64,000 nucleotides of DNA. Origin: Candidatus Latescibacterota bacterium. GTDB lineage: Bacteria; Latescibacterota; UBA2968; GCA-2709665. Numbering within the stretch: the stretch's first letter is position 1; the number at the start of each line of letters is the position of its first letter. Shown here in pieces: positions 7,685 to 60,567 of the stretch. The stretch spans positions 4,672,001 to 4,736,000 of the forward strand of contig OZ244744.1 of NCBI GenBank assembly GCA_965219455.1, written 5' to 3'. The position numbers and the translations under genes were made by a program. A model generated the notes under the pieces. It made no database searches. It was not told where the DNA came from and was given only the letters and a program-made list of their open reading frames with translations.

Positions 7685-7758
7685 ATACATGGGAGCACTC
7701 GATACCCTCTGTGCCTATATTAGATGAGACAGTTCCCCGCTTTCAAATGGGAATTGTA

Positions 7759-7938
7759 ATGGGTACTACGGATGAGCGTAAGAAGAAGCCGGTGGTAGAG
7801 GTTTTTGATAGTCGGTATAGGCCAACGAAGGCGGAGATGGAAGAGGAGATTGTGATAGATGCGAGCCCGGAGGAGTTGCTACGGGCGGTTGTTCAGGATG
7901 TAGAACTTCGGATTGTTGATCCGAAAGGGAAGCGGTAG
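7759..7938 (+). CDS. Small hypothetical protein of a type I recall next to IS1595 transposases
   Basis: YRPTKAEMEEEIVIDASPEELLRAVV; lies directly inside the left TIR; the IS1595 association is from memory. Confidence 0.55.
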   Translation: MGTTDERKKKPVVEVFDSRYRPTKAEMEEEIVIDASPEELLRAVVQDVELRIVDPKGKR

Positions 7939-7978
7939 TATAACGCTGGCAACAATATGGGTAAGGGGGTTAGGGAAA

Positions 7979-8014
7979 TAAAAAAAACCTGCCAGTATGT
8001 TACTTCTGGCAGGC
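7979..8014 (-). terminator. Intrinsic terminator for the minus-strand cargo of cassette A
   Basis: CCTGCCAG-N10-CTGGCAGG stem followed by a T-run on the minus strand. Confidence 0.7.
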
Positions 8015-8062
8015 TGTTGATAGCGTTATGGGAGGTCAGGTTGCTTTTTGAGATTTGCTTCT

Positions 8063-8308
8063 TTAAACGTGACCGTAAAATTCATTTCGGTCTATTTGCA
8101 ATGCTCTCAAAACTGCTCTGATTTGTGGTATCCTGATTTGTTCATTGGGTTTGCCTGCTGTTCCTGAATATAGTAATTCTCCGTCGACTGTGCGGGTAAA
8201 ACCCCAATAAGTTCCAATGACATCTGTGCCGCTTTCCTGAATATCACATTCGCAATTGAAATTTTGTATTAAACACTCTTTGAACTGTTCAAACGGCAGA
8301 TAAAACAC
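8063..8308 (-). CDS. HicA-like small protein (putative toxin)
   Basis: 81 aa; C-terminal helix IPQIRAVLRALQIDRNEF resembles HicA; downstream of a HicB-like gene; no GSH motif. Confidence 0.45.
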   Translation of the reverse strand: MFYLPFEQFKECLIQNFNCECDIQESGTDVIGTYWGFTRTVDGELLYSGTAGKPNEQIRIPQIRAVLRALQIDRNEFYGHV

Positions 8309-8318
8309 AGCGAAATCC

Positions 8319-8675
8319 TCATGCGCAAACGCGAGAGTTCGCTTTTACAACAGGCATCAAAGGTGTTTTCCATTCATCAAGAGCAAGTCGACGATGATTG
8401 CGTTTTAGCTGAGCGTCCTCGGCTTCTTCAAACATGGTCCAGAACTTCTCAGGGGCCTTCTCAATGCCTTGTAAGATTTCCCGGTTATTTGTGGCATCAA
8501 AATGGCAATGAGTCATAATTGTAACGTAAAACCGAGCCCTGACCTGGGGTATTGTCTGTCCTTGAGCAACAATATCATATTCAAGACCCTGAGCAATCCA
8601 AACATCTTCGTTCCTATACAAAAGGACGTTTACTTGAATGACATCTGACAACGACCTTGTAGTTTTCCCGTTCAT
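8319..8675 (-). CDS. HicB-like protein (putative antitoxin)
   Basis: VLLYRNEDVWIAQGLEYDIVAQGQTIPQV resembles the HicB N-terminal fold; RBS GGGAG. Confidence 0.6.
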   Translation of the reverse strand: MNGKTTRSLSDVIQVNVLLYRNEDVWIAQGLEYDIVAQGQTIPQVRARFYVTIMTHCHFDATNNREILQGIEKAPEKFWTMFEEAEDAQLKRNHRRLALDEWKTPLMPVVKANSRVCA

Positions 8676-8714
8676 TGCGTACTCCCGTGGTTGTCATTTG
8701 CATATCCTTTCACA

Positions 8715-8744
8715 AAAATACGTTATCGGAGTACGGTCTGTCAA
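8715..8744 (-). promoter_or_regulatory. Putative sigma70 promoter of cassette A cargo
   Basis: TTGACA-N18-TATTTT on the minus strand; positionally equivalent to the promoter in cassette B. Confidence 0.5.
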
Positions 8745-9006
8745 GTGTAAAAATCCAGAAACGCATGTACGTACTGGGTTGTACAGACCGTAACAGAAAG
8801 GGGAACAAAGTGTGGGTATCGTTGAAATGTGACTTTGCGCTATAATTCCCTTTTTAATTAGAAAACAATGAAGAGGGCGAAGGAACGCCTAACGTCAACG
8901 GATGTATCAGTACCGATACATAGGTGCTTGCCGACGGGGCTTCAATAAGGCCACGGATCCACATTCGCGGAATTGGAAACTCGCAGTTGGTATTATACAA
9001 GCTCGA

Positions 9007-9132
9007 TCAAAGCTTGATCAAAATGAGCGTGCCAAGCGTGATCAAGCTTGTGATCTGGATTCCCAAAAGCCATCGAATCCAGAACAAGAGATCACGTTGG
9101 CCTTGCTCGAGGCTGTTCAAGCGTGCATCCAT
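9007..9132 (-). CDS. Small coiled-coil/transmembrane protein (41 aa), possible last gene of the operon
   Basis: MDARLNSLEQGQRDLLFWIRWLLGIQITSLITLGTLILIKL; starts 4 nt after the SNF2 stop, preceded by GAGGGG. Confidence 0.45.
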   Translation of the reverse strand: MDARLNSLEQGQRDLLFWIRWLLGIQITSLITLGTLILIKL

Positions 9133-9136
9133 CGGC

Positions 9137-11251
9137 TCAATAATCCCCTCGGTTTGATACGAGCGGCCGTTCCAATCCGAACAGCCCGAAAAGTTCATCA
9201 CTGTTCAACTGGGCGGACAGATCCATCGACACGTCGTCGATGAGTTGGTTAAACAGTTCCCGTTTGTTCTCCAGAATATCGTCAATACGCTCCTCAATGG
9301 TTCCGATGCAGGAATACTTGATGACGTTGACTTTGACCGTCTGGCCGATGCGGTGGCTTCGGTCTTCGGCTTGACTTTCTACGGCGGGGTTCCACCAACG
9401 GTCCAGGTGAATCACGTAGGACGCCTCCTGCAGGTTCAATCCCAAACCGCCCGCCCGCAGCGACAGTACCAACACTTTGTGTTCGCTGCAGGTCTTGAAT
9501 CGTTCGATGATTTCGGCTCGCTCCTGCGGAGGCAAGTCTCCGGTGATGGTAAGCGGAATGAAATCCCGCATTTGGTTGGCCACGGCCCCCACGCCGGATG
9601 TGTCGCTGACGTACTGCGAGAAGATCAGCGTCTTGTGTCCCTGTGCTACCAGTTGGTCCACGCGGTCCTTGATGTCTGCCAATTTGCTGGATTCACCGGT
9701 CATTGGGTCGGCGTTGCAGATTTGCTTCAAGCGAGTGATGAGCTCAAGCACGTGCCGCACGTTGACTTCCGCGCCAAGAGACTTCAGGTAGACGATGCCT
9801 TCCTGTTCGGCCTTATCGTAGCTCTTGCGTTGGCGGGAGCCCAACTCGATGTCTACCTTCGTGACCTGCTTGACGGGAAGGTCTTTCAAGACCTCCGCTT
9901 TTTTGCGTCGAACCTGCAACTCACGATGACGCCGCTGCAATTCCACACCTGGATGGTACCATTTTCTTACACCAGTGTGGTCATAGTCAACGAACTCCAG
10001 TATCGAGGCCAACTCCTCTTCGCGATTCTCCATAGGGGTGCCGGTCAGAGCCCAGGAGCGGTTTCTTTTCAGCCCTTTCAGCGCATCGCTCGTATCGTTG
10101 CGGTTCTTGATCCTCTGAGCCTCGTCGGCTACCACAACGTCCCAGTTTTTGCGACCCACCAGAGCTTGGGTGCTGAAGTCAGACCGCAGGGTATCGTAAC
10201 TCACGAGTGTTATTTCTTTCTCGGCATGCCACTGCCAACTGCGGTCCGATACCGAACCACGGATGATGATGGCGGAAAGCTCAGGCGCCCATTTTTCGAT
10301 TTCGCGCCGCCACTGGTTCAGCACGCTTGCAGGAGCCGTGATCAAGCACGATTTGATTTCGCGACGTGCGCGGAGAATCCGTAAGGCTGTGATCGCCTGT
10401 ACGGTTTTACCCAGGCCCATGTCGTCGGCCAACAGCAGCCGGCGGTTTTCCAGCAAAGCCCGGACACCCTGCTGCTGGAAGGGCATCAAGTCACCGGCCC
10501 AATGCAGCGGGACCGCTCGGAAAGGTTCCGGCGGATTGGCCAGAACGGTCCACAGACGTTCGGCCAGAGTTGCGTCGGCTCCTGGGCCTGAACTTGCCTT
10601 ATGGACGTTCTCACGAATTGCCGGGTAATCGCTGGTGGGATATCCGGGGCGTTCGGGCAATGAAGATAAGCTCACTACAACGGCCAAACCTGAAAGGTCG
10701 GTGACAGCGTGAATCCGATCGTCGTCAAACGCTACGTCCAATCCTGCAGTCGCCCGTTCGAAAGGTTCAGCGGGATTGCCCCGGTCCAGTATCTCTACGA
10801 GAAGTTGGCTCGCTTCGGTATCCGGAGTGGGTTTTTCCGTAACCCAATGCAAATCATAACCCTCGTTATACGGGTCGGCCGATTCGCCATTGGGCCGAAC
10901 ACCGGATGTTGCGATACGGCAAAAGGGAACCTGTACCTTTATTTCTTCGTTGATCGATCCATGAGGTACTTCATCGGCCCGGGCGAGTAACAACGTCGGC
11001 ACAGTTGTGACAGCTCTGAGTAGTGATCCTGCCAGCGATTGCAAGATTTCCGGCTTGACGATTGCAAGTTGTCCACCAGACCCCGAGCAGACCGTCCGGG
11101 TGAAGCAAAAATCCAGGGGTTCACCCTGTGCGGACGTCTCGAATAGCGCCGCCCGTACGCCTTTACCGCCCTTTTCTTCGACGAACCGTAGCCAGGCCAC
11201 CGCGCCGGATCCCGTATTCACCGATTTCAGTTCATTGAAAAGTTCCGGCAA
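9137..11251 (-). CDS. SNF2-family (SF2) helicase/ATPase with an uncharacterised N-terminal domain
   Basis: LLADDMGLGKT, DEAQRIKN, LTGTPMEN, AGGLGLNL, DRWWNPAVESQAEDRSHRIGQ; about 245 aa N-terminal extension. Confidence 0.93.
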   Translation of the reverse strand: MPELFNELKSVNTGSGAVAWLRFVEEKGGKGVRAALFETSAQGEPLDFCFTRTVCSGSGGQLAIVKPEILQSLAGSLLRAVTTVPTLLLARADEVPHGSINEEIKVQVPFCRIATSGVRPNGESADPYNEGYDLHWVTEKPTPDTEASQLLVEILDRGNPAEPFERATAGLDVAFDDDRIHAVTDLSGLAVVVSLSSLPERPGYPTSDYPAIRENVHKASSGPGADATLAERLWTVLANPPEPFRAVPLHWAGDLMPFQQQGVRALLENRRLLLADDMGLGKTVQAITALRILRARREIKSCLITAPASVLNQWRREIEKWAPELSAIIIRGSVSDRSWQWHAEKEITLVSYDTLRSDFSTQALVGRKNWDVVVADEAQRIKNRNDTSDALKGLKRNRSWALTGTPMENREEELASILEFVDYDHTGVRKWYHPGVELQRRHRELQVRRKKAEVLKDLPVKQVTKVDIELGSRQRKSYDKAEQEGIVYLKSLGAEVNVRHVLELITRLKQICNADPMTGESSKLADIKDRVDQLVAQGHKTLIFSQYVSDTSGVGAVANQMRDFIPLTITGDLPPQERAEIIERFKTCSEHKVLVLSLRAGGLGLNLQEASYVIHLDRWWNPAVESQAEDRSHRIGQTVKVNVIKYSCIGTIEERIDDILENKRELFNQLIDDVSMDLSAQLNSDELFGLFGLERPLVSNRGDY

Positions 11252-11286
11252 TTCAGTATACCCCAGGAAGGAGAAGTGGTCCGCTT

Positions 11287-12555
11287 CTAATCAGTGTCGT
11301 CCCTGGACTCTCGTTCGAGGTCGACGTTCTCTGCATAGGGGTGTCGGAACTCCTCGCCCTCGGTGTTGGGCTGGTAGTCGGGATAGCGCCGCATCAAATC
11401 CCATTCGTTGATGGCTGCGCGGACCTTGTAGCGCATCCGGTTCTGATACCCGGCGCCGCCGGCCCTTATTGGCACCGGCGGAGCATCCCAGCCGTAGGCG
11501 TCGGTGTAGAGTCTCCGTAGATTCTCCATGGTCGGTAGAACGTCCGCGTCGGTTGGTGGATTCAACGGCGAACATCCTCGTACGAGCAATTCCATACCGA
11601 TTTCGGCGTCTGACTTCGAAATCTTGAAACGTTCCGTACTATCCATCTTTGGCACCACGTAATCGCGGTCTTTTTTTCCATCCGTGATGATTGCGGAAGC
11701 AAAATCGTCGGTGACGGAGCCCACGGTTCTCAGCCCGGGATACGACCCGCTGGCCGCCTGTCCCAGCCAGCGAGCCAGCTCGGCGTAAGACCTTCCCCGT
11801 TGCAGGAGAGTGTACGAACCGACGAGTTCGATCTCGTCCAGCAGCACCACCCAGCCCCGGTAACCAGCAGCCTTGATCAGCTGGACGGCGAAACGGAGAC
11901 GCTGGGGCGGCAGGTCGGCGGCTCTGGGCGCTCGGAAAGAGTAACTCTGCTTTTGCCCTATCTGCCTGAGGCCATTCTTGACCCGGGAAATGTAGATTCT
12001 GTCGCCCGCCCAGAAGTTCTCGATCTCGCTGTTCAGTTCGAAATCGCGCGACCGTTCGTGAACAAGCAGACTGGCCGGGAACATCTGGCTCAGCCCATTA
12101 GCGCCGGTGTCGTTTGCCCACTTGAAGAAGCTGGCGTATTCTTGTGAATCGGGCTTCAACGCCTGTCCCAGTTCCTCCATCAACCGGCCGGTGCGGTCGG
12201 GCATCTGGGCGTTATCCACGGCCGACTTGAATACCTTGCCCAGGTCGTATAGCGGCGTCTCCTTGCTGATGGTCACCTTGCTACAGACGAATCCCTGGGA
12301 AAGGGCCCGATCTTCCAGGTGAGTAAGCAGGTGAGACTTGCCGGAGCCGAAATCCCCGGAGACCAGCATTCCCAAAGTGCCGGTCGAAAGGTCAACACCT
12401 TTCGTAGCTCCGGTCAACATACCTTCGAATTGACCTTCAGCCTCCGCCTGGTTGCAGCCCAATAGCTTCACAGCGTCCCTGTTGGGTACGCCGTTTCGGA
12501 GGGCCTCAAGGGCCCGCCTGGAGGCGAATTTGTGTCTATCGGCGCAAACTGCCAC
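11287..12555 (-). CDS. BrxD-like (DUF2791) P-loop ATPase
   Basis: RRALEALRNGVP N-terminus, Walker A GDFGSGKS, SKETPL, Walker B GYRGWVVLLDEIE. Confidence 0.85.
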   Translation of the reverse strand: MAVCADRHKFASRRALEALRNGVPNRDAVKLLGCNQAEAEGQFEGMLTGATKGVDLSTGTLGMLVSGDFGSGKSHLLTHLEDRALSQGFVCSKVTISKETPLYDLGKVFKSAVDNAQMPDRTGRLMEELGQALKPDSQEYASFFKWANDTGANGLSQMFPASLLVHERSRDFELNSEIENFWAGDRIYISRVKNGLRQIGQKQSYSFRAPRAADLPPQRLRFAVQLIKAAGYRGWVVLLDEIELVGSYTLLQRGRSYAELARWLGQAASGSYPGLRTVGSVTDDFASAIITDGKKDRDYVVPKMDSTERFKISKSDAEIGMELLVRGCSPLNPPTDADVLPTMENLRRLYTDAYGWDAPPVPIRAGGAGYQNRMRYKVRAAINEWDLMRRYPDYQPNTEGEEFRHPYAENVDLERESRDDTD

Positions 12556-12569
12556 TGCCTTCCACCTTC

Positions 12570-13538
12570 CTATGTCAGCCGCACCAGGGATGCGACCGGA
12601 TTTACCCGGTTCCTATCGCGAACATCGTCCATCACCCGGGTGCGCAGGGCCTCATATATCCCGTAGCCCCGGGACCTGCGATCGCCACTGTCGTCGAGGA
12701 AATCGCTGTTGGTTACGACCACCAGTACCGTGCTCGTCAACCGGTCAGCGCCGTCGACAAATTCCCGCAGTAACTCGTAGTGTTCCATCGCCATGGCTCT
12801 GGTGTAGTAGCGCAGACCGTCCCTCGGATTTCTAGCCACCGTTACGCGAGCGTTGTCAAACAATACTACAGTTCCGGAGTGCCCTACCTGATGAATCCAG
12901 TAGAGGGCCGATTCGATGAAGTATCGGGCCGTGTTGCGATTGATACTGGTGTAGATGGAAAAGGGACGGACGCCGCTGATTCGCGTGTTCTCGCCCGTCA
13001 GCCACTCCAGGAGCGGCTCGCCAGTGTATCCGCCACGGCTGTATTCTTCCGTGCAAAGATGGCTCATACACACCCGGAAATCTCTCGCCATTTTCGTGTT
13101 CCTGAAGACAGCGTTCTGAATCATCGGCCTCAGGTTTCCGATCACGAACTCCGATTCGAGACCGTTGACCGTCGCGATGGCGTCGAAGACGTTGCCGTCC
13201 ACGCCGGGGCGGATTCCACCAATCTGGTAGTCCTGCTCGGCGGCCAGCTTCAGGATCATACGACGAGCCAGCAGCCGCCAATCGACCTGGCTGGCGATCC
13301 TGAAGAAGAAGTCCTGCGGCATGTGCGCCCGCATCGTCTCTGCGTTCAGTTTAATGAAAAGATAGTCCAACTCATGGCAGCTTGCCTCCATTCTTGCGTA
13401 CAAACCAGCCCTGGAACCCTCGTTTGATGGCACTGCGAACTTGATCGACGCGCCGCCACCGCGGACAAACGACGAAAGGTACTCTTCGTTAATGACCTGA
13501 ATCCAGTCCTTGAGAGAGATGGAAATTGTGTTGTGCAT
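12570..13538 (-). CDS. BrxD-like paralog with degenerate Walker motifs
   Basis: GGASIKFAV-PSNEGSRA at the P-loop position (no GKS/T); GHSGTVVLFDNARV at Walker B; YELLREFVD and YEALRTRV are typical of DUF2791 C-terminal motifs. Confidence 0.75.
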   Translation of the reverse strand: MHNTISISLKDWIQVINEEYLSSFVRGGGASIKFAVPSNEGSRAGLYARMEASCHELDYLFIKLNAETMRAHMPQDFFFRIASQVDWRLLARRMILKLAAEQDYQIGGIRPGVDGNVFDAIATVNGLESEFVIGNLRPMIQNAVFRNTKMARDFRVCMSHLCTEEYSRGGYTGEPLLEWLTGENTRISGVRPFSIYTSINRNTARYFIESALYWIHQVGHSGTVVLFDNARVTVARNPRDGLRYYTRAMAMEHYELLREFVDGADRLTSTVLVVVTNSDFLDDSGDRRSRGYGIYEALRTRVMDDVRDRNRVNPVASLVRLT

Positions 13539-14338: not shown

Positions 14339-14473
14339 ATTTTGTTTCCCGCGTTCGAAAGATCTGTCGAATCAGCGACATGATCAATGGTAGACACAGC
14401 TATCACCGGAATTTCTTCCTGTTCCCTCTTCATGAAAATAGCCGAAATTGCCCTCTGGCGGCGTGGTTTATTC

Positions 14474-14502
14474 AGCATATAGTATTACGTGCGTGTTGTC
14501 AA
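14474..14502 (-). promoter_or_regulatory. Sigma70-type promoter of the BrxD-like/SNF2 operon
   Basis: TTGACA-N17-TATGCT on the minus strand, about 135 nt upstream of the first gene. Confidence 0.65.
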
Positions 14503-14590
14503 GCAAATCGTTCGCAATTTCAGAAAAGGCGCAGCCGTCGTGGCCGCGCCTTGATTTCCCTCCGATGATGTCTGTGGACCTCTTGCCGGT

Positions 14591-18334: not shown

Positions 18335-18350
18335 TATGGACCCATAGCGA

Positions 18351-22691: not shown

Positions 22692-24372
22692 CCCGATTAA
22701 TTCATGAAAATGAATAGAGCAGTGTCTGTGGAAGCAGAAAGTGTTCTGGAGGAGGGGAAATATTCGAATGACGTGTTGGTGACGCGATGATGAGTAATAT
22801 TGGATGTGCCGTCAGCATTGAGGGGTGTCGAGTTCTTTATTTAGGGTGTGGAAAGGACAGACGGATGCCTTGGTCTTACTTTGTGGCGATGAGAAAGGGA
22901 TGGATCGGCCGGCGCGAAACGGCGTTATGGATATGCCTTTGCCAAATTACAGAGGATGGTGTCATAAAGGTGTTTCAAGGGAAATGATGTTGGCAAATGG
23001 AGTTTGATTTTGGTCTTGAGTTCGGACACTCGCCCGGCGACTTTGAGAATGCGATTCTGAATGGTATTAAACTGGGCGTGCGTCCATTGGGTAGCCCGGA
23101 GTCCTTTTTCGGTAAGGGTATGCATCAAGACATAAGCGGCACTATGCAGGAAGAGACGGAAGTGATTGGCTTCGAAGGTGTGGCAGGAGGTACGATCGGA
23201 ATGGAGGAAGGTTTTGTGATTCTTGATGAAGTTTTCCATCCTGCCGCGCGCGCAATAGACGGTTTTGTAGATGAATGAGGGCTGGCTACTTTTCAGGTTG
23301 GTCACGACAAAGCGTGTATTGGCTTGTCCGGAAGCGGTGATTTCAGCTTTGTAGATGATGCGCCTTGGCACGGCCCAAGTATCTGCCTGGTAAGCGAAAC
23401 AGGTAAATAACTGCAAGGGCTGTCCGGTTTCCCGATACTGGGCCTTTGCCTGCTCGATCAACGCGTGTCCCCGTTGTGCAAGCCTGGCATTGCCCGTCTG
23501 TCCCAGCACAAAATACACGTCTTGCTCGTCGCAAAAGTCGTGGACCTCAGGACAGGAAAAATGGCCATCGCCACGCAAAAAGATACGCACGTCCGGCCAC
23601 GCCTTACGAAGGATTTTCACCAGTCGCTTAAGAATGCTGACAATCTGTTTGCCGGTAGGACGGGCGCCCGGACGCAGCAGCGTCGTGATCAGTCTTCCTG
23701 TCCGGCCTTCATAAATGTGCAAGGGACAGTAACAGCGTTCATCGTAATAGCCATTGAACAACGACAACTGTTGCTTGCCGTGAACCTCGTCATCGGTGTC
23801 ATCGATATCCAGAACGACCGCGTCGGGAGGCCTATCGTAGGACGCGATAAATCCGTCCACAAGGGCCTCGGCAATACGATATAAGTCCCTGCGACGAATC
23901 CCGTTTTCCAATCGACTCATCGTGGGTTGGCTGGCCAACGGCGCCCCTGATATCGGCAACCGATCACAGGCCGCCTTGAACGCAGGGTCCTCGCGCAACG
24001 CATTGCAATCGTTCGCATCTTCATACGCGCACGCGATCTGAAAGACACGCTGGCTGATCAGGTCCATCATCGTGTGATCCACATAACTTGGATGCCGACG
24101 GTCCGTTAACGCCTCGACGATCCGAGACAGGATGCCGATTTTGGACGCCACCTCTCGCAGCAGCATCAACCCCATATCGCTGGTGAGCACACCGCCATCG
24201 AAGACGGCTTCCACCGGCTTGCCCGAAACACTTGCGAAAGGAAGTGCGAGTTGATTATCTTGAACTTTCACGGTAGTTTCCTCCCAGTTCATTGTTGTAT
24301 GGTTATTCACCTAACCATAATATAATACAATGACTTGGGTAAGGAAACTACCTTTTTTGTGAATAATTGGGG
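22692..24372 (-). mobile_element. IS1380-family insertion sequence (1681 bp)
   Basis: TIRs CCCGATTAATTCATGAAAA / CCCCAATTATTCACAAAAA; TSD TTAG (22688-22691, 24373-24376). Confidence 0.93.
22925..24310 (-). CDS. IS1380-family DDE transposase
   Basis: FDGGVLTSDMG, LASQPTMSRLEN, LDIDDTDD, RGDGHF, YCARGRMENFIK. Confidence 0.95.
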   Translation of the reverse strand: MNNHTTMNWEETTVKVQDNQLALPFASVSGKPVEAVFDGGVLTSDMGLMLLREVASKIGILSRIVEALTDRRHPSYVDHTMMDLISQRVFQIACAYEDANDCNALREDPAFKAACDRLPISGAPLASQPTMSRLENGIRRRDLYRIAEALVDGFIASYDRPPDAVVLDIDDTDDEVHGKQQLSLFNGYYDERCYCPLHIYEGRTGRLITTLLRPGARPTGKQIVSILKRLVKILRKAWPDVRIFLRGDGHFSCPEVHDFCDEQDVYFVLGQTGNARLAQRGHALIEQAKAQYRETGQPLQLFTCFAYQADTWAVPRRIIYKAEITASGQANTRFVVTNLKSSQPSFIYKTVYCARGRMENFIKNHKTFLHSDRTSCHTFEANHFRLFLHSAAYVLMHTLTEKGLRATQWTHAQFNTIQNRILKVAGRVSELKTKIKLHLPTSFPLKHLYDTILCNLAKAYP

Positions 24373-26338: not shown

Positions 26339-26501
26339 GCGCCCCGGAGCGCGTCCGCTAAATGATCGATCGATTCAGGATTCTTCTGACACGGGCGGTT
26401 TATATTCCTGATTGGAATAGATTATAGAGCTGTTTTTTCGTAGACCGATGCTGAGACTGCCGGCATTGAACTCCGGAAGACGATTAACGCAAGGTTCCAA
26501 A

Positions 26502-26772
26502 GGCTCTGAACGCCTGTCTCGCCTGCTGAACTACAAATTATACTCATTACCAGGAGTACACGCTGAGATCCGGGGTCGCCAGATATATGAAAAAATGGAA
26601 TATATCAGCGTGTTTCTGCTGGCCGAACAAGCTCGTCTGAAGCTTGATTCTGCTGCAAGGCAGGTGTCGACACAATGCGCTTATTCGAAGTAACTGCTCC
26701 GCGCAAGAGCAGGGTGTTCAATCCAACGAAATTCTATCGCACTCAGGATTTTCGCAGCAGCAGTTCAAGGCC
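26502..26772. mobile_element. 271-bp MITE-like element, copy 1
   Basis: Ends GGCTCTGAAC / GTTCAAGGCC (8/10 inverted), flanked by CAAA on both sides; near-identical copy at 28706. Confidence 0.75.
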
Positions 26773-26910
26773 CAAACGATTTGCCAAATCTCTTAAAAAC
26801 AGGTATATTTTTCGCTTGACAAAGCTAACTCACTGCCCTATCCATCTAGACGGATAAGTTGGGTGGGAGAGTAAGTTTTTGGAACTTAGGATGAATAATG
26901 TGAGTTATTA

Positions 26911-28060: not shown

Positions 28061-28225
28061 ACTGTTCTGTCCCGGAAATAGGTTGCCTGAATTAGGCCGA
28101 CGAGTCGCACGTCTCGCAAAGCGTCTGAGCGCAGGCGACCTGCGTAAGGTCTGCGAGCGAAGGCAACGCAGCGAGACGGGATGAATCGGCGGGAGAATGG
28201 TGAGATATTTCTGGGACAGGACACT
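28061..28225. mobile_element. IS630-like MITE (165 bp), copy 1
   Basis: TIR ACTGTTCTGTCCCGGAAATA / TATTTCTGGGACAGGACACT (17/20); homologous copies at 38961 and 43427. Confidence 0.75.
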
Positions 28226-28608: not shown

Positions 28609-28704
28609 ATGCCAACCGATCCCGGAAAGTGCGAAGGGAGTTGTCTCTGCGGTCAGATCAAAATCCAGGTGGTTGGGCCACCTGTTAAAGCGGGATATTG
28701 CCAC
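28609..28704 (+). pseudogene. 5' fragment of a GFA-family gene cut by the MITE
   Basis: GAGGAG RBS then MPTDPGKCEGSCLCGQIKIQVVGPPVKAGYCH, ending at the MITE boundary. Confidence 0.75.
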
Positions 28705-28705
28705 A

Positions 28706-28976
28706 GGCTCTGAACACCTGTCTCGCCTGCTGAACTACAAATTATACTCATTACCAGGAGTACACGCTGAGATCCGGGGTCGCCAGATATATGAAAAAAT
28801 GGAATATATCAGGGTGTTTCTGCTGGCCGAACAAGCTCGTCTGAAGCTTGATTCTGCTGCAAGGCAGGTGTCGACACAATGCTCCTATACAAAGTGACTG
28901 CTCCCCGGAAGATAAAGGTGTTCAATCCAACGAAATTCTATCGCACTCAGGATTTTTGGAGCAGCAGTCCAAGGCC
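28706..28976. mobile_element. 271-bp MITE-like element, copy 2 (direct orientation to copy 1)
   Basis: Same length as and nearly identical to 26502-26772; flanks CACA / CAAA. Confidence 0.75.
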
Positions 28977-29406
28977 CAAACCAGGCTACATATGTGACTG
29001 CCTTGTTTATGCCGGCGATTTTGACGAAATTTCAATTCACCTCCTTCCAAAGATACATCGAATAAGGGTCAGAAACTCTGAAGCCGCCAGGCGCAAGCTC
29101 TTGTGTCTCGGAATAGAGACCGATCCGGACAAGAAATGTTACATCTTTGTAAATACGGAGGATAAGACGCAGATAATCGAATTTGTCGCCAACGTCTATA
29201 TTTTCGAGGATCGACATTTCACGAAGACGCCCAGCAACGAGTACATCTCCAGAGAACCGGTCGAAGCCATCGGTTCGGAAGTATATGCGATGCCTGAGAT
29301 TCTGCGCCTATGGGGCATCCAACTCATCACAGTCGACTCGGTGCCCGATCTATCAAGGATTCTCACCGACGCTGGCGTCGTCTATTCCTATCAGACAGGA
29401 TCGTAA
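28977..29406 (+). pseudogene. 3' part of a hypothetical gene lacking its native start
   Basis: ORF 28879-29406 begins inside the MITE; the remainder (LVYAGDFDE..LLPK..NEYISREPVEAI) is not GFA-like. Confidence 0.5.
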
Positions 29407-38960: not shown

Positions 38961-39357
38961 GGTGTTCTGTCCCAATAATAGGTTGATTAAATTCGGCCGG
39001 TGAAGAGCAGCAAATACAGCTATCAGCTTTCAGCAGTCAGCTTGAATCAAAAACGAAAGACAAACAGCAAAGAGCGACCGGCGGAACCACCGCGAATCCA
39101 TCAGATTGATCTCCCTGAAATTCCTTTCGCCCTTTTTCTTGGGCGAAGCAAGAAAAAGGGCAAGGGAATAGGGGACGTTAAGGGTTTGGGGGAGACTTTA
39201 TAGGCGAAAATTGGTCGGAAAGGTGAAGCGCGGGTCCGCCTGGAACGCAGTTCCGATTGGCCGAAATAGTTGAGAGTATTGACGTTGGCGGACGACACCG
39301 CAGCGAGACGGGATGAATCGGTGGTCGAATGGTAGGATGTATTCGGGACAGGACACT
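38961..39357. mobile_element. IS630-like MITE, copy 2, enlarged by nested repeats
   Basis: Ends GTGTTCTGTCCC / GGGACAGGACACT; contains a heptamer run (39017-39041) and a hairpin end shared with the 16320-16810 element. Confidence 0.65.
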
Positions 39358-42979: not shown

Positions 42980-43067
42980 ATCCATCATCGTTCAGCGCTC
43001 CTTCGCCCTCTACATTGCTCTCTAATTATTATGGGGAAATTGTCTCATTAATATAGGCACAGAGGGG
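42977..43067 (-). repeat. Dispersed repeat family R
   Basis: Minus strand starts CCCCTCTGTGCCTATATTAATGAGACA, 27/27 identical to 61547-61573. Confidence 0.8.
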
Positions 43068-43308: not shown

Positions 43309-43715
43309 ATGACGAAGGTTGAGGCGTCAACGCAGGATGAACCGCGGGCCGAGTATAATTTGAAAAGCCTGCGGGTGAGGAAGGTTGGTTCTGGGCGAAA
43401 GAGCTTTGGCAGGCACGTCGTCCAGCTGTGTTCTGTCCCGGAAATAGATCGCCGAAATTCGGCCGCCGAATCGCCCGGCTCACAAGGCGCCTGAGCGAGG
43501 CGACCTGCGAAAGGTCGGCGACTGAAGGGAACGCAGCGAGACGCGATGAATCGACGGAAGAATGGTGACATATTTCTGGGACAGGGCAACAAAAGCCTGA
43601 CGTTGCAGAGGTTTTTCCAGATGCTGATTCTGTGAACCAGGCAGCATTGCGATTCCTGATACGTGTGACCAGAGAAAACAAGCCGGCGCTTTCTGAAGAT
43701 GTTGGTGATGACTGA
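43309..43715 (+). pseudogene. BrnA-like antitoxin gene interrupted by a MITE
   Basis: DEPRAEYNLKSL..HVVQL [MITE] PDVAEVFPDADSVNQAALRFLI. Confidence 0.7.
43427..43590. mobile_element. IS630-like MITE (164 bp), copy 3
   Basis: GTGTTCTGTCCCGGAAATA / TATTTCTGGGACAGGGCA; colinear with 28061-28225. Confidence 0.75.
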
Positions 43716-50895: not shown

Positions 50896-50973
50896 GCGCC
50901 CGGTCAGTTCAAAGGGAAGGGGCTTCTTCTTCCCCGGACCGTTGAAGCGATCACCGCCCGCCATCGAACCGAC

Positions 50974-54077: not shown

Positions 54078-54295
54078 TTTCGGCAGTGCCAGGAGAATCG
54101 CTGCGTTCCCCGGCCATCCGGCGGCCTGATTCAGGATCGGTTATGGGCGAAGCCAGTTGGCGGTTTGCAGACACGCAGAGCTCCCATTCACACCGAAGGC
54201 AACCCGCAGCGCGGTTCCGGAACAGATTCCCCAAAAGCAATCTCGTTAGATTATGGGAGACTTTCTCCATACAACTGCAGGTTAGGAACGATAGT

Positions 54296-55848
54296 CCTCA
54301 ATGTGAAATAAATCAGGCGGCTTTCTGGAGCGCGTTGCAGATTTTACGGTATTGTTTTTCGGTGTGCTTGTTGCGTTGGAGGCGCAGGGTTAGACGCCCT
54401 TCGGGTCGCACGAGGTGTCCGGCTCGGTTGATGAGCTCGAACCGGAGAGTACGTATGGATTTGAGCGGCCATCGGTTGGTATTTTTCAAGGTGCGATTGC
54501 GTTTTGTGAGTCCGGTTTCGATTTGGAAGTTGACCAGGAGGTTGTGCGCGAGAATGACGAACTGTTGCCAGGCACTATTGGCGTGGTAATGGTGCGTGGG
54601 GATGGTATCGAAGCTAAGTCCGGTCTTGAGTTCGCCAATGGCTTTTTCGTGGGCACCACGGCCTGCCATGAAGCGCCAGAGCGCGCGCAACTTGAAGGGT
54701 AGATTGGTAGCCACCGCACTGTATTCGAAGGTGCCATCATCGGGATCGAACAGGTCCAACTGGTAGTTCTTTCGGGTTTGATGCATCACGCGTTTTCGAA
54801 AGATGGCAATGTTGAGGGTGCGTTTCCATTTTTTGACCGTCAGCGTTGACGTGAAGCCGTCGACGCCCTTCTCGATGCGCTGCCAGTTGCTGCATTGACG
54901 GATTTTGTGCTGTAAGTCCAGGCCTTTCCAGAAGGGTACCTTGATGGCATACGAGGCCTTGTTCTTGATGAGCGTGTTCACCACATCCTCTTTGAAAAAG
55001 GCGCCATCCATGCGGAATCGCAGAGTGTAGGCGTGTCCCAAGGTCTCTTTGATCTGGGAAAACACGTCCTTTAGAAACAGGATGGAGGCGCTGCCATCAT
55101 TGACGTTGCCTGCCCGGTTGTGCACGCCCAGAAAATGACCACTGTCGGCCAGGTAGGCGGTGATCGGATAGTAACTGGGGACTTTGCGATGATGCGGATT
55201 ATACCCGCGGCGGGCACCGCCGACGCGTTTTCCGGTGCACAAGACGGTGCCGTCCACGTCGATCGTCAATTTTCGGGCGCGCAACAGGTTGATCTTATGG
55301 GCAACCACGTCGGCGTTGAGGGCTTTCAGGGCGTTGAGACCCTTGTCGGAAAACCGTCTCAGAAACGTACTCACGCTGCGGGGGGTCGGTAGATCCGTCA
55401 GACCGCAAAACCGCTGCAGCAGGGGATCTCCTTTCAAGAAATCCAGATGCCGCAACCGACGGCCGCCTACCCACAGCAAACCCAACAGAACACGGCACAG
55501 GCTCACCACACCGAAATCGCCGCCAAAGCCCACACTGCCCAGGTGACGGCGCAACTGCCTGTTCCAATCCACGTTTCGCAAATATCGCATCAACAGTTCC
55601 AAACCCGCATACGAGGTGAGGCCTTCACCGGTGAATTCCATCTTCAAATTGTCGTTGACACGCGCGTGCAAATCCGCTTTCTTTCGTCTCACTGTACGTG
55701 GCCTTTCGTTTTGGGTTAAATGGGTCGTTTGTCGCTTCCCAATATACCAAAATGGAAGGCCTTTTCCTATTGAAAAATATAGACTTATTCGCATTCTCGC
55801 TTAGTCTTCAATACCCCGAAATTCATCAACATTATTTTCGCATTGAGG
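54296..55848 (-). mobile_element. IS1380-family insertion sequence (1553 bp), distinct from the first
   Basis: TIRs CCTCAATGTGAAATAAAT / CCTCAATGCGAAAATAAT; TSD TAGT (54292-54295, 55849-55852). Confidence 0.92.
54313..55794 (-). CDS. IS1380-family DDE transposase (true start probably near 55690)
   Basis: LTSYAGL, TIDVDGT, FRMDGAF, GRGAHEKAIGELK. Confidence 0.92.
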   Translation of the reverse strand: MRISLYFSIGKGLPFWYIGKRQTTHLTQNERPRTVRRKKADLHARVNDNLKMEFTGEGLTSYAGLELLMRYLRNVDWNRQLRRHLGSVGFGGDFGVVSLCRVLLGLLWVGGRRLRHLDFLKGDPLLQRFCGLTDLPTPRSVSTFLRRFSDKGLNALKALNADVVAHKINLLRARKLTIDVDGTVLCTGKRVGGARRGYNPHHRKVPSYYPITAYLADSGHFLGVHNRAGNVNDGSASILFLKDVFSQIKETLGHAYTLRFRMDGAFFKEDVVNTLIKNKASYAIKVPFWKGLDLQHKIRQCSNWQRIEKGVDGFTSTLTVKKWKRTLNIAIFRKRVMHQTRKNYQLDLFDPDDGTFEYSAVATNLPFKLRALWRFMAGRGAHEKAIGELKTGLSFDTIPTHHYHANSAWQQFVILAHNLLVNFQIETGLTKRNRTLKNTNRWPLKSIRTLRFELINRAGHLVRPEGRLTLRLQRNKHTEKQYRKICNALQKAA

Positions 55849-56221
55849 TAGTGACCGAAACGAAATCCGAACGGAGGCGCCATCACGATTGGAGTTGAAC
55901 CGAGAGCGGCCCGCATTCCACAGGTATCCCCGCAATTAGCCCGCCACCTACCGGATTCTTCAACCTATCCCGCCGTACGGCTCGCAAGCCATTGAATCCA
56001 GGAATTCGCCTGGATTTTTTCGTTTTTCCAGATTTCATTTAAGACATTTAATAACAAATAAATATATGTGTTCTATCCACACTTCCGAAACGAGAAACAG
56101 GGGAGGGGGGGACTTGATTTTGCGGCACGTTGAGACCATATTCCATACGTAGTCTGCAATCGCTGGACAAGAAGGACGGGTTTAACCCGGCGAATCGTCT
56201 GAGAAAACAGGACAATCCGAT

Positions 56222-57175: not shown

Positions 57176-57268
57176 TTCCGTGGCATGTATTCTTGTTTCC
57201 CTGCATCGCGGAACTGATAATGGAGTGCGCTTTGTGATTCTTAGGAAATCGGTCAAACGGTCACTACG

Positions 57269-57742
57269 ATGATCAAGAGAAGAGTCGTACGAGCGGTGAT
57301 GGTGACGCCGGATCGCCGTGTACTGCTGATGAAGATCCGGGAGCCAGTAACCGGGTTTGAGTTTTGGGTTACTCCCGGTGGGGGCCTGGAACCCGGTGAA
57401 TCTGATGAGGATGCGCTTCGCCGGGAGGTCGCGGAGGAGACTGATGCTACAAGGATCTCTCCGGGAAAACAGGTCTGGACCAGACGGTGTGAATTTACGT
57501 GGGACCGCCGCGACTACAGCCGGGACGAATTCTACTATCTCGTACAGACCGACCCCTTCGATCCCGTCATGGACATGCAGGCGGCTCCCGGCGAGGCATC
57601 GGCCTTCCGCGAGTTCCACTGGTGGTCTATTGACGCCATCGGCAGGTCCGAAGAGACATTCTCGCCGCGCAATCTTCATCGCCTCATAGAGAGTTTAGTC
57701 AGGAACGGACCGCCGGATGAACCGACTGACGTCAGCGCATGA
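57269..57742 (+). CDS. NUDIX hydrolase
   Basis: PGGGLEPGESDEDALRREVAEET. Confidence 0.92.
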   Translation: MIKRRVVRAVMVTPDRRVLLMKIREPVTGFEFWVTPGGGLEPGESDEDALRREVAEETDATRISPGKQVWTRRCEFTWDRRDYSRDEFYYLVQTDPFDPVMDMQAAPGEASAFREFHWWSIDAIGRSEETFSPRNLHRLIESLVRNGPPDEPTDVSA

Positions 57743-57808
57743 TCGAGAGATCAGAAGCGCGGAAAATTACATGAGAGACTACACGAAACGTAACCGGGAG
57801 CGGGAATC

Positions 57809-58084
57809 ATGAGCGATGTAGAACGGTATATTGCGCGGCGAAAAAAGACCGATCCCGAATTTGCAGAAGGATTCGAGGAAGGGTATAAGGAGTTCGAATT
57901 CGGCGTTTTGCTGCGGCAGGCCCGACAGGAAGCCGGCTTAACCCAGGAGCAACTCGCCAGGTTGATGCATACAAAAAAGACAGCGATTTCTCGCCTGGAG
58001 AACCGTGCCGGAGACATTCGGTTGTCAACGCTGAGAAAGGCCGCCAGGGCATAGAGTAAAGAACTGGTATTGAACCTGAAATAG
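57809..58084 (+). pseudogene. HigA-like XRE antitoxin with a premature stop; toxin reduced to a 3' remnant
   Basis: [24 protein letters not shown]; TAG at 58052 then SKELVLNLK*; upstream 57744-57812 reads REIRSAENYMRDY..., like a RelE/HigB tail. Confidence 0.7.
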
Positions 58085-58101
58085 GCTTTGGTCAGAAAAC
58101 G

Positions 58102-58131
58102 AGCTTTCAGCATTCAGCTTTCAGCCGTCAG
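58102..58131 (+). repeat. Short tandem heptamer repeat (TCAGCnn)
   Basis: AGCTTTCAGCATTCAGCTTTCAGCCGTCAG; similar runs at 39017-39041 and, inverted, 43140-43164. Confidence 0.55.
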
Positions 58132-58516
58132 ACCACCCATCCCACAACCAGCCGGGGGTCCCGCGGAAGAGGCAGACCGCTGAACGCTTGGAGATTCGCA
58201 CGTCTGTCAACGCGACAATTCCCACGCATTACGGTGCCTGAAGGGCATGTTGACTAATCCGAAAATTGCTGCGTCCGACACAGGTACACCTCACCGCAAT
58301 CCTGCCCCGAGTCAACAATTAACAACCGCTCCCGGATCAGGACGCCTTAACCTGTCATTCCCTACCTGACCCACAAGCCCCTGAGGTCCCACACCTTCAT
58401 GGCGAGGCTTCGGAAGCGTCCAATTTCCTCACAACCGTCAATCCACCTGTTCGTTCCAGGTCTCGAGTTCAGGAAAACGTCCACGAACAATGTCTGAAAG
58501 GAGTCGTCGCGCCAGA

Positions 58517-59107
58517 ATGCAGACGCTCATACTCGTGAAGCACTCATTGCCGAAGATCGATCCCTCCGTCCCCGCAAGGGAATGGCGTCTTTCCGAGGAA
58601 GGGCGGCGGCGTGCGCGGAAATTGGGTGAGAGATTGGACAGATACGATCTCGATGTAATTGGCAGCAGTGCCGAACCCAAGGCCATCGAAACGGCTGGAA
58701 TCGCGGCCGGCGTGCTGAACGTCCCGGTGGAAGTCGTCGAGGGGCTGCATGAACATGAGCGCGAGAACGTCGGCTTCCTGGAAAAAGAACGATTCCAGCA
58801 ATCGATCAGGCGATTTTACGAGCAACCCGCCGATCTGGTTTTTGGCGAGGAAACCGCGGATAGCGCGCATGACAGGTTCTCGAAGACCGTATATGGTCTT
58901 TCAGACCGTATTCCTCAGGAAAATATCGCGATCGTCACGCATGGGACCGTGCTGAGCCAGTTCGTGAGCCGAAATTCAGATTTGGAACCGTTTGCGTTGT
59001 GGAAAGAGCTGGGTCTGCCGTCCTGGGTCGTCCTGTCCCGCCCAGGTTTTGACGTGGTCGAAATATGTCGGAGCTTCGGGGACGGGGGTTCCTCTGGTGC
59101 GGAATAA
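58517..59107 (+). CDS. Histidine phosphatase family protein
   Basis: LILVKHS, SSAEPKAIETA, LHEHER, GEETAD, IVTHGT. Confidence 0.85.
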   Translation: MQTLILVKHSLPKIDPSVPAREWRLSEEGRRRARKLGERLDRYDLDVIGSSAEPKAIETAGIAAGVLNVPVEVVEGLHEHERENVGFLEKERFQQSIRRFYEQPADLVFGEETADSAHDRFSKTVYGLSDRIPQENIAIVTHGTVLSQFVSRNSDLEPFALWKELGLPSWVVLSRPGFDVVEICRSFGDGGSSGAE

Positions 59108-59180
59108 CCGCGCTATTGGCATTCGTCGGTCTTGCCGCGCCGCAGGTTGGCTGTCGGTGGGTGGTATCTCGAGTGTTGCT

Positions 59181-59624
59181 ATGGACGGATTGAGGACTCG
59201 CAAGGCGATCCAGGCGGACGTTGACTTCGCTTTTGCCGTGAAGGAGGCGGCGTTTCGCGAATACGCCGAACAGGTCTGGGGCTGGGATGGAATCGATCAG
59301 CGAGAATTGCACGATTTGCGATTTGCATCACAGGATGTACACATCATCCAGTTTCGAGGGATCGACGTCGGCTATTTTTCCACGTCCTCGACTGCCGATG
59401 CAGTTAGAGTCCACCAGATCTATATCCTTCCTGAATACCAGCGGAAGGGGATCGGATCGGCATGCATGAGCCACATAGTCGCTGATGCCCGCGCACGGAA
59501 AATGGCGGTCAGGCTTCAGGTTCTGAAGATCAACACTCGCGGTATTTCGTTCTACCAGAGGCTGGGATTTGAGATCGTCGATGAAGATGATACGCACGTC
59601 CAAATGGTGAATCTGACAGAGTGA
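59181..59624 (+). CDS. GNAT acetyltransferase
   Basis: IYILPEYQRKGIGS, LQVLKINTRGISFYQRLGF. Confidence 0.9.
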   Translation: MDGLRTRKAIQADVDFAFAVKEAAFREYAEQVWGWDGIDQRELHDLRFASQDVHIIQFRGIDVGYFSTSSTADAVRVHQIYILPEYQRKGIGSACMSHIVADARARKMAVRLQVLKINTRGISFYQRLGFEIVDEDDTHVQMVNLTE

Positions 59625-59682
59625 ATCCGATCAGTACCAATCAAACCCACAACACAATCTCCAAAATTAGGGGACAAAAAGG

Positions 59683-59711
59683 AAAACCTGCCAGTTTGTA
59701 TGCTGGCAGGT
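59683..59711 (-). terminator. Intrinsic terminator homologous to the one in cassette A
   Basis: ACCTGCCAG-N8-CTGGCAGGT followed by TTTT on the minus strand. Confidence 0.6.
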
Positions 59712-59738
59712 CGTAGATAGCGTTATGGGATACGAGGG

Positions 59739-59960
59739 TTACTCTAAGGCATCGAGTCTTGTTTTGTTTTCAGTGATACGTTCCCCGAAGGAATCCAGGC
59801 GTTTGTCGATACGCTGGATGTCTTGCCTTAGTTCTCGAATGTCGGCTTTGAGGTCATTTCTTATGCTATCCATCATAAGCCAGACCAGCATGACCGTAGT
59901 CAGTATGGTTGTTGCGACGGCAGCGATTGTCGAGGTCGCAATAAATTTTCTGTCGTTCAT
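59739..59960 (-). CDS. Small TM plus coiled-coil protein (73 aa)
   Basis: MNDRKFIATSTIAAVATTILTTVMLVWLMM..DLKADIRELRQDIQRIDKRLD; same RBS/start block as 8675. Confidence 0.7.
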   Translation of the reverse strand: MNDRKFIATSTIAAVATTILTTVMLVWLMMDSIRNDLKADIRELRQDIQRIDKRLDSFGERITENKTRLDALE

Positions 59961-60004
59961 TGCGTACTCCCGTAGAGAGATTTCTTGTGACCAGTTACAG
60001 TAAA

Positions 60005-60032
60005 AATCTAACATAGCGGGGGCTTATGTCAA
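60005..60032 (-). promoter_or_regulatory. Putative sigma70 promoter of cassette B cargo
   Basis: TTGACA-N16-TAGATT with a TG extended -10. Confidence 0.5.
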
Positions 60033-60161
60033 GGCAAAACATAAGCCTTGTCAAGCTGAATTGTTACAAAGGAGATGGATATGAGGCTTGTCTCCCCGGA
60101 GAAAAAGCGGTAGGAATTTGGGTGATGAAAATCGTTTGCAATTTGAGGATCGGGAGATGCG

Positions 60162-60518
60162 ATGAGGAGGTTTGGACTGATAGCGGTTCTGGCATGTGTA
60201 TATGCATGTGCTACCGGCGGCGGAGCAAGTCGGGCACCGGTTACGTTTGAAATTGGAAGTGTTGAAGCGTGGCGAAGTTTAAAACCTGGGATGTCGAAGG
60301 AAGATGTGAAAAGGGTTCTGGGCGATCCGCTGGCGGTAGCGGTTTCTGAAGCGTCTAATGTTGAGGGAGGCGTTGTCGAAAATAAATTTTGGGAACAATC
60401 GGAATATCCGCCAAGAGGGTTTGTTGTATTTTTGCGGGATACCAGTTTTTTAGGTAGCGCGCCGAAGGTTATGAGGTGGCGAGAGCCAGGCGAATGGGAG
60501 AAGGATGAAAGTAGATAA
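60162..60518 (+). CDS. Putative lipoprotein with a SmpA/BamE-like motif
   Basis: Signal peptide with lipobox-like VYAC; LKPGMSKEDVKRVLGDP. Confidence 0.65.
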   Translation: MRRFGLIAVLACVYACATGGGASRAPVTFEIGSVEAWRSLKPGMSKEDVKRVLGDPLAVAVSEASNVEGGVVENKFWEQSEYPPRGFVVFLRDTSFLGSAPKVMRWREPGEWEKDESR

Positions 60519-60567
60519 TTTGAGGTTTTAGAATGTGACTTTTGGTTATAATTCCCCAAAATTACCC

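Follow-up and report, generated by a model that had tools for sequence, protein, structure and literature searches.

A 64,000-nt stretch of the genome of Candidatus Latescibacterota bacterium (contig OZ244744.1, positions 4,672,001 to 4,736,000; hereafter the window) carries two short gene-bearing units, element A (7749–8850, + strand, 1,102 bp) and element B (59670–60556, + strand, 887 bp). Both are probably non-autonomous derivatives of one passenger-carrying lineage of the IS1595 family of insertion sequences (IS), a 'transporter IS', and the control sequences that they share would have come to them through descent combined with patchwork recombination. An earlier interpretation of this DNA (the sequence-only reading) had proposed that unrelated cargo genes are exchanged close to the start codon within a fixed frame of promoter, ribosome-binding site (RBS) and terminator, and that the two units represent an integron-like platform for gene capture and expression riding on an IS. 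Coordinates given below are those of the window unless they are marked as genome coordinates. The genome that contains the window (G000) is 5.84 Mb in size, and the comparison set comprised 15 genomes of the genus, with G013 and G003 referred to as sister genomes; the counts for block E, block R and gene S, defined below, come from searches across these 15 genomes. In addition, 125 loci (L001–L126) were picked through matches to parts of A or B.

Results

The right end and an autonomous relative

The right ends of A (8826–8850, + strand) and B (60532–60556, + strand), termed block E, are 88% identical over 25 nt (repeat D18). With up to three mismatches allowed, E gave 15 matches in 6 of the 15 genus genomes, and the reversed control pattern gave none. 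In G013 two inverted copies of E lie 5.19 kb apart (locus L061, 1568–6756) and enclose an open reading frame (ORF) of 317 residues with DDE_Tnp_IS1595 (4.9e-40) and Zn_ribbon_IS1595 (2.5e-8) domains, together with passenger genes. A perfect 8-bp duplication of the target, TTTACTAA, flanks this element, and 8 bp is the length of target duplication made by the IS1595 family. E thus forms both ends of an autonomous element in G013, whose repeats the right ends of A and B match at 88–92% over 24–26 nt, and a decayed twin of the element is present on contig C6 of G001. The assignment of the right end to IS1595 in the sequence-only reading is borne out, and the autonomous relative with a matching repeat that it called for exists in a sister genome.

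The two units had also been described as lacking a transposase, and this is correct: searches for the IS1595 transposase (Pfam PF12760 and PF12762) gave no match in A, in B or anywhere else in G000. IS1595 DDE domains are found in 12 of the 15 genus genomes. Because G000 contains no IS1595 transposase, A and B are stranded, non-autonomous elements. They show what is expected of such derivatives, namely the absence of a transposase, an IS-type right end, a target duplication and a cognate transposase in relatives, but for a left end that falls short of a full repeat. No repeat of the E type lies within 3.4 kb of four other IS1595 transposase loci (L093, L094, L097 and L098), which may represent other subgroups or have their ends beyond the stretch. 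E-like matches with five mismatches in L102 and L103 were considered as IS ends and left uncounted, as they lie inside a conserved ORF.

Further short derivatives occur in the genus. G000 itself contains an 830-bp transposase-less mini-element (genome 2870593–2871423; L064 2094–2924) with a truncated copy of gene S and a gene pair that resembles RelE/ParE by eye, flanked by the duplication AAACGAAC/AAGCGAAC, as well as solo right repeats at genome positions 1757860 and 2244375. G014 has a 353-bp miniature inverted-repeat transposable element (MITE) with the duplication TAATCAAA. For the larger G013 and G001 elements, the search for empty sites in G000 yielded nothing usable, the flanks being repetitive or absent.

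Insertion of the two elements

Element B entered its site as a unit of 887 bp and duplicated 8 bp of the target. In G006 (contig C24), window positions 58517–59660 correspond to 378–1497 of locus L065 and positions 60560–61539 to 1500–2479, in one contiguous stretch with a single copy of the 8-bp target, while G000 reads CAAAATTA, 887 bp, CAAAATTA, with the two perfect copies at 59662–59669 and 60557–60564. An empty site, proposed as a check in the sequence-only reading, is therefore at hand for B, together with a duplication. The left tip of B, GGGGA, matches the IS repeat for about 5 nt and is followed by an A-rich terminator flank. G013 was rejected as a second empty site, since it holds a different 1.36-kb insert at that intergenic spot. 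Metagenome runs showed no empty site: in X1, X5 and X7 alike, contigs span the left junction of B; the lower word shares of these three runs are due to divergence right of B. Four nucleotides separate the landing point from the −35 box of a downstream promoter-like site (60568–60596) that precedes a MazE/MazF pair (60640–61233), and the IS right repeat of B now abuts this mazEF promoter-like site.

Element A sits inside the inverted repeat of an IS3-family remnant. It interrupts a 95-nt repeat, X, whose left half (7703–7740, + strand; A's target) consists of the motif CCCTCTGTGCCTATATTA and the start of an IS3-family left inverted repeat. Its right half lies at 8851–8915 (+ strand), where a target copy at 8851–8858 is followed by the rest of the IS3 repeat, the orfA leader, AAGGAG and the start codon. 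X is uninterrupted at 43067–42979 and 61547–61640 and at other sites in the genome, and the single intact copy, at genome ~2449.9–2451.6 kb, is followed by orfA and an rve-type orfB of the IS3 family; the copies in the window are left-end remnants. The target copies of A, TTTCAAAT at 7741–7748 and TTTTTAAT, agree at six of eight positions, and the left copy in G003 reads TTTTAAAT. Such degenerate flanks are expected of an old event. A occupies the identical site in G013 (97% identity) and G003 (94%), so the insertion predates the split from these sister genomes.

The left tip of A (7749–7759, + strand), GGGAATTGTAA, matches the IS left repeat GGGAATTATAA at 10 of 11 positions and then diverges, and it overlaps the RBS of gene S, the native upstream region of which reads GGAGGTTGTAATG on contig C27 of G006. 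The pair GGGAATTGTAAT/GGGAATTATAGC was rejected as a full inverted repeat of A, as the first 11 nt alone match and the stretch doubles as the S RBS region. Repeat X itself (~95 nt; 14 nhmmer matches at E≤1e-3) is an IS3-family left end comprising inverted repeat, leader, AAGGAG and orfA start, and only one copy retains its transposase. The 18-nt motif CCCTCTGTGCCTATATTA precedes every copy, which suggests a preferred target or a longer end.

Control sequences common to A and B

The sequence-only reading described four blocks in the same order in both units. Three of them (terminator, RBS/start block and right end) are homologous, and the fourth, the promoter, is common in kind only. The terminator block T extends over 7984–8033 in A and 59683–59730 in B, with 28-nt cores (8006–8033 and 59703–59730; repeat family D9) that are 89% identical. 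On the minus strand both fold into a 10-bp G+C hairpin followed by a U run, with energies of −16.2 kcal/mol (z −2.9) in A and −17.7 kcal/mol (z −4.4) in B. The hairpin of A (7986–8015) belongs to a segment (7972–8042, − strand) that is homologous, up to the stop codon, to the 3' flank of the TMcc genes described below; that of B lies at 59685–59712 (− strand). The RBS/start block R, CGTTCATTGCGTACTCCCGT, is indeed identical over 20 nt at 8669–8688 and 59954–59973 (reading ACGGGAGTACGCAATGAACG on the minus strand), as had been claimed, and a third exact copy starts at genome position 5005496. These three are also the only matches in the 5.84-Mb genome at up to three mismatches, against a chance expectation of ~1e-5. 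Both promoters are sigma-70-like minus-strand sites that match the consensus at 10 of 12 positions, PA (8715–8744) being TTGACA-18-TATTTT and PB (60005–60032) TTGACA-16-TAGATT. As the two promoter regions have no sequence homology, they cannot be counted as one block.

The terminator, the RBS/start block and the PA-type promoter are components of small transcription units that form one family found throughout the genus. Each unit encodes a protein of 75–95 residues, here called TMcc, that has a single hydrophobic helix and, as its tail, a coiled coil terminating in ..RLDSFGERI... The promoter of these units has the form CTTGACAAG-N16-GTACTTTT, which is the usual type and that of PA, or a second type ending in GTTAGATTT; PB is of the second type, which recurs in a unit at genome 748 kb, on contig C29 of G004 and in G012. 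The leader ends in CGGGAG-6 nt-ATGAA, and a CCTGCC..GGCAGG hairpin serves as terminator. Among 26 distinct promoter matches, 17 drive TMcc paralogues, three are A orthologues, five precede other ORFs and one is cut by the end of its locus. One neighbour of a TMcc unit is a 162-residue two-helix membrane protein (L001 2240–2728; genome ~748.7 kb), encoded in tandem with the unit between a PB promoter and a T-type terminator; its match to SLATT_1 is very weak (E 0.84).

The exact 20-mer R occurs six times in the 15 genomes, and three of these occurrences are orthologues of A at one locus. PB-type leaders in G004 and G012 end in GCGGAGGCACACAATGAAG, which identifies block R as an old shared initiation region. 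The third copy in G000 (L002 1997–2016; genome 5005496–5005515) shares 22 nt with B and heads an unrelated 272-residue gene with no IS context. Orthologues of this gene all start with ATGAACGAY and have similar, non-identical leaders.

Cargo of A and B

Element A starts with gene S, which reads towards a terminator; facing it from the other side are ORFs of 81 residues (8063–8308, − strand) and 118 residues (8319–8675, − strand), preceded by the RBS block and the promoter, and the element closes with the right inverted repeat. Homology to TMcc units is limited to 7972–8042 and 8662–8745, and alignments place the breaks in the TMcc ORF after ATGAACGGGAAAAC, 14 nt into the ORF, and at its stop codon. 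As read from these alignments, the TMcc ORF has been replaced from nt 15 to the stop codon by a two-gene operon in an in-frame fusion. The 118-residue protein has 708 relatives at E≤1e-3, with matches that start near its residue 11, and residue 2 of the closest homologue (P0024) aligns with that residue. Since the homologues start there, the incoming gene was fused in frame behind five TMcc codons. The first 9–10 residues are foreign to the protein: the TMcc start contributed MNGKT, and the leader of the incoming gene, read through, may have contributed TRSLS. The joint in A is a fusion at an arbitrary point and not a cassette joint.

The sequence-only reading called these two ORFs a HicB/HicA-like pair. 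In the protein atlas the neighbours of the 118-residue protein are named HicB (score very high) and those of the 81-residue protein HicA (score high), which makes the identity a lead, and no profile supports it: Pfam and NCBIfam gave no family at E≤1 for either protein, HicB models gave no match to 54 aligned sequences (the 118-residue protein and 53 relatives), and a profile search of the PDB with the 118-residue family returned nothing relevant. A word-based homologue search with this protein returned its own 96% cluster alone. Single-sequence AlphaFold2 models of the 118- and 81-residue proteins (pLDDT 39.8 and 52.0) are too poor for fold comparison.

Element B contains, from its left end, the terminator, TMcc, the RBS block and promoter PB on the minus strand, followed by a 3' remnant of S, a lipoprotein gene reading towards the right repeat, and that repeat. 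Its TMcc (59739–59960, − strand, 73 residues) has the N-terminal hydrophobic helix and coiled-coil tail that had been noticed earlier, and it belongs to the multicopy family. It is unrelated to the cargo of A, as was also claimed (BLASTP E 2.4). The putative S remnant (60096–60113, + strand) retains the last five codons (PEKKR) and the stop. The 118-residue lipoprotein-like gene (60162–60518, + strand) lies directly before the right repeat, as it does in the IS copy of G009. Of the claim of a divergent lipoprotein gene, the gene itself stands, and its BamE match of 22.8 bits falls just below the Pfam cut-off of 23.2 bits. Positions 59670–60094 correspond to a TMcc unit with a PB-type promoter, as at genome 748 kb and in G004:C29 and G012, and positions 60095–60556 (S remnant, lipoprotein gene and repeat) are 86% identical to G004:C79, so that B is, from its sequence, a chimera of two modules. 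B TMcc and its 748-kb paralogue are homologous in the C-terminal half alone. A 177-nt sponge metatranscriptome contig (X20) covers 59725–59901, most of the TMcc ORF, with one difference; it is a weak hint of TMcc expression, with DNA carry-over possible.

Gene S and the right-end module

Gene S (7759–7938, + strand, 59 residues), unnamed in the earlier reading, belongs to no known family and is a conserved gene of the IS lineage located near its right end. It has 23 matches in 10 of the 15 genomes. Mismatches at the three codon positions (0.216/0.179/0.408) indicate that S is protein-coding, and none of its 22 protein clusters has a Pfam domain. Twelve of the 23 copies have E (up to 5 mismatches in 24 nt) 180–1,100 nt downstream on the same strand, and five adjoin a PB-TMcc-terminator unit divergently. 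The passengers found between S and E are the hic-like pair (one event, three orthologous loci), TMcc (three), a 96-residue Zn-ribbon-like ORF (one, in the G013 element), ORFs of 143 and 210 residues (two), and nothing or almost nothing in short derivatives (three). The copies with E downstream thus define a right-end module of S, a variable passenger and the repeat.

S and TMcc are neighbours in two arrangements, divergent (L069, L071, L073 and L019) and convergent (window A, L016 and L017). The recurrence of the two genes side by side in both hints that they form a functional pair.

Integron features

An integron-like capture platform is not supported by the data: junctions vary, the promoters differ, block R is rare, and neither an integrase above cut-off nor recombination sites were found. 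The model of the integron integrase (TIGR02249) gave seven matches, all of them short of the 265-bit cut-off, with a top score of 88.9 bits. Junction mapping showed no repeats resembling attC or attI sites beside the cargo. The breakpoints lie 14 nt inside the ORF in A, near the Shine-Dalgarno sequence in the G013 element and in mid-ORF between B and the 748-kb unit. Of the proposed exchange near the start codon within a promoter-RBS-terminator frame, it holds that in A the ORF was swapped and the frame kept; the breakpoints are not constant and A and B have different promoters. The sequence-only reading had named three outcomes that would speak against it. One of these, randomness of the junction positions, is what we observe; the other two are not, as further copies exist beyond A and B and the two cargo ORFs are not diverged homologues.

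A chromosomal integron, or a cluster of attC sites lacking an integrase (CALIN), was considered for the accessory-gene array of the window and rejected, because there is no IntI above cut-off and repeat X is an IS3 left end and not an attC-like site. Short fragments matching the integrase model at 31–81 bits (cut-off 265) are found at genome 4547491, 4556745 and 4583289, 89–125 kb before the window, and one of the three contains an in-frame TAG. These sites are also matched by flanks of the G001 IS, so that the fragments must lie in repeated DNA.

Other features of the window

Directly to the right of A, positions 9137–13538 (− strand) may form part of a defence locus, with ORFs for a SNF2-family helicase and for two ATPases resembling BrxC/BrxD. 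A repeat of ~160 nt with a MITE-like look and terminal inverted arms (TGTTCTGTCCCGGAAATA ... TATTTCTGGGACAGGACA) is present in three copies (28062–28223, 38962–39355 and 43428–43588) that are 68–89% identical, and a 281-nt direct repeat (26497–26777 and 28701–28981), 94% identical, has its copies 2.2 kb apart. Two DDE_Tnp_1_4 transposase genes are located at 22925–24310 (− strand, E 2.2e-155) and 54313–55794 (− strand, E 5e-33). These two transposases, together with many small accessory genes (GNATs, glyoxalases and toxin-antitoxin pairs), mark the window as variable and IS-rich. No Rfam family was found in a search of the entire window.

Discussion

In this IS lineage the TMcc unit has its place between gene S and the right repeat. 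We propose that of the IS each element has kept E, its genuine right inverted repeat, along with the adjacent passenger module. The mini-elements would have moved by means of a transposase supplied in trans that recognised the right repeat together with a surrogate left end matching the repeat only at its tip (GGGAATTGTAA in A, GGGGA in B). Such movement, by analogy with end misrecognition in ISEcp1 and ISPme1, is in our estimate slightly favoured; both tips start exactly at the duplication with GGGRA, which argues for a surrogate end. Differences in cargo could have arisen without a dedicated capture system, through occasional recombination of paralogous units, either illegitimate or at short homologies, and the exact identity of R at three loci of G000 through short gene conversion between initiation regions that were already similar. 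A selfish or stabilising role is probable for passengers such as the small membrane proteins and the toxin-antitoxin-like pairs.

Several observations weigh against this proposal. Neither element has a real left inverted repeat, the match stopping after 10 of 11 nt in A and ~5 nt in B, so that we infer the transposition of the mini-elements rather than observe it. The left tip of A reads exactly as nt 1–7 of the IS repeat joined to the native S leader, as the product of a microhomology deletion would, and G000 has neither a donor copy of A or B nor a transposase. R is an island of perfect identity with unrelated flanks on both sides in B and at genome 5005496; it takes more than descent to explain such identity, and gene conversion is an inference. 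The replacement in A is strikingly clean, with promoter, RBS, five codons and terminator all kept, and at least three other non-TMcc ORFs lie between a like promoter and a terminator or gene S (the 162-residue ORF of L001, and those in L083 and L014). Together, the clean replacement and these ORFs may leave room for a recurrent process. In addition, the counts over the locus set come from a biased sample, because the loci were chosen by their resemblance to A or B.

It is possible, and in our judgement less likely than movement as mini-elements, that full-length IS were inserted at both sites and later lost their transposase through microhomology deletions, each joining the first nucleotides of the left repeat to a look-alike further inside, so that A and B never moved as mini-elements. 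The A tip is what such a deletion would leave, nt 1–7 of the repeat (GGGAATT) followed by the native S leader GTAATGGGT (compare GGAGGTTGTAATGGGT in G006:C27); in B, GGGGA gives way to sequence typical of the terminator flank of other units, both sites retain target duplications, and relatives contain decayed transposase genes. This account nevertheless needs two independent events that both started within the first 5–11 nt of the repeat, a pattern that a surrogate end predicts. Moreover, B is a two-module chimera in which no further IS interior could be traced, and the short two-ended derivatives with duplications elsewhere in the genus show that trans-mobilisation does occur. It is highly improbable, by comparison, that A and B are not mobile at all, their blocks being the regulatory sequences of paralogous chromosomal small-gene units and their likeness to IS ends a matter of chance. 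Many TMcc units in the genus do have neither S nor E nearby, and G000 lacks an IS1595 transposase; yet the perfect duplication and the G006 empty site already refute this for B, E bounds both ends of transposase-bearing elements, and A interrupts an otherwise contiguous repeat X.

The cargo raises a separate question, whether an inward promoter and RBS and a terminator form the fixed arms of a dedicated slot beside the right repeat, within which unrelated ORFs are repeatedly exchanged, as a one-cassette platform that works without an integrase. We regard this as unlikely, and no less so the version in which the IS1595 lineage keeps the slot together with gene S and small ORFs are swapped by recombination at the initiation and terminator blocks. 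At least five types of cargo, placed in different elements between S or the terminator and the promoter or right repeat, can be listed in its favour (the hic-like pair, TMcc, the Zn-ribbon-like ORF, and membrane proteins of 143 and ~130 residues), the 748-kb unit (L001) and L083 hold other ORFs between a like promoter and terminator, and the replacement in A preserves promoter, leader, start and terminator almost exactly. The ORFs to be fitted into such a slot would be single-pass coiled-coil and two-helix membrane proteins, a zinc-ribbon protein and the HicBA-like pair, and, if true, small toxic or defence genes would have an expression slot that is carried by a transposon and needs no integrase. 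Against it, the breakpoints differ in every case examined, the promoters of A and B are of different types, and an inward promoter at the right end is absent from G001:C6, from L099 of G009 and from the G000 mini-element. The rarity of exact R (six copies in 15 genomes), the 17 of 26 promoter matches that drive paralogous TMcc genes, and the lack of an integrase above cut-off and of attC-type repeats at the junctions point the same way.

Derivation from a passenger-carrying IS1595 lineage places A and B close to several known systems. IS1595-family insertion sequences and the notion of the transporter IS were reportedly treated by Siguier, Gagnevin and Chandler in 2009. Sections of PMC3129680 and PMC9330008 describe transporter IS (tIS) as IS that carry passenger genes. 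The G013 relative agrees with these in its inverted repeats, 8-bp duplication, Zn-ribbon and DDE transposase and internal passenger genes, whereas A and B have no transposase and one full repeat, and the passengers S and TMcc belong to no described family. A comparable case is said to be MIC231 of IS231 in Bacillus cereus (De Palmenaer et al., 2004). The mobile insertion cassette (MIC), as set out in part of PMC3129680, is a transposase-less passenger cassette bounded by IS ends and served by a transposase in trans. A and B resemble MIC231 in lacking a transposase, in their passenger genes and IS end, in their modular build and in the dependence on a transposase in trans that their mobilisation would entail; unlike MICs, which have both IS ends, they have a left end that is surrogate or truncated, and they come from another IS family.

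The transposable modules and transposition units formed by ISPme1 and ISEcp1 (IS1380 family), according to portions of PMC9330008 and PMC3281130, combine a true IS end with a misrecognised look-alike and are flanked by a target duplication. One true and one look-alike end within a duplication is also the plan of A and B. In the known units, however, the look-alike lies outside the IS and neighbouring DNA travels with the transposase, whereas in A and B the look-alike would lie inside the IS and the transposase would have been lost. Integron cassettes resemble A and B by analogy alone, in that a resident promoter expresses the ORF in the slot and the cargos are unrelated; they differ in all the integron features discussed above (IntI, attC/attI-like sites, fixed junctions and a common promoter), and in A the cargo is fused in frame. 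Toxin-antitoxin pairs within transposition modules of the Tn3 family are described in part of PMC7157771. The pairs inside A (hic-like, its toxin-antitoxin nature unconfirmed) and inside the G000 mini-element (RelE/ParE-like) recall these, in a different transposon family. In the literature consulted, a thin basis for absence, no description was found of this IS lineage or of an IS-borne exchange slot.

Current ideas on IS biology are not overturned by these results. They present a passenger-carrying IS that decays into short, gene-bearing, transposase-less units which standard annotation misses, and the unusual point is that every unit has one true and one look-alike end. They also document a natural and clean replacement of one ORF by another within a promoter-RBS-terminator frame that was kept, and they point to an uncharacterised two-gene module, S and a small membrane protein, that travels with the IS.

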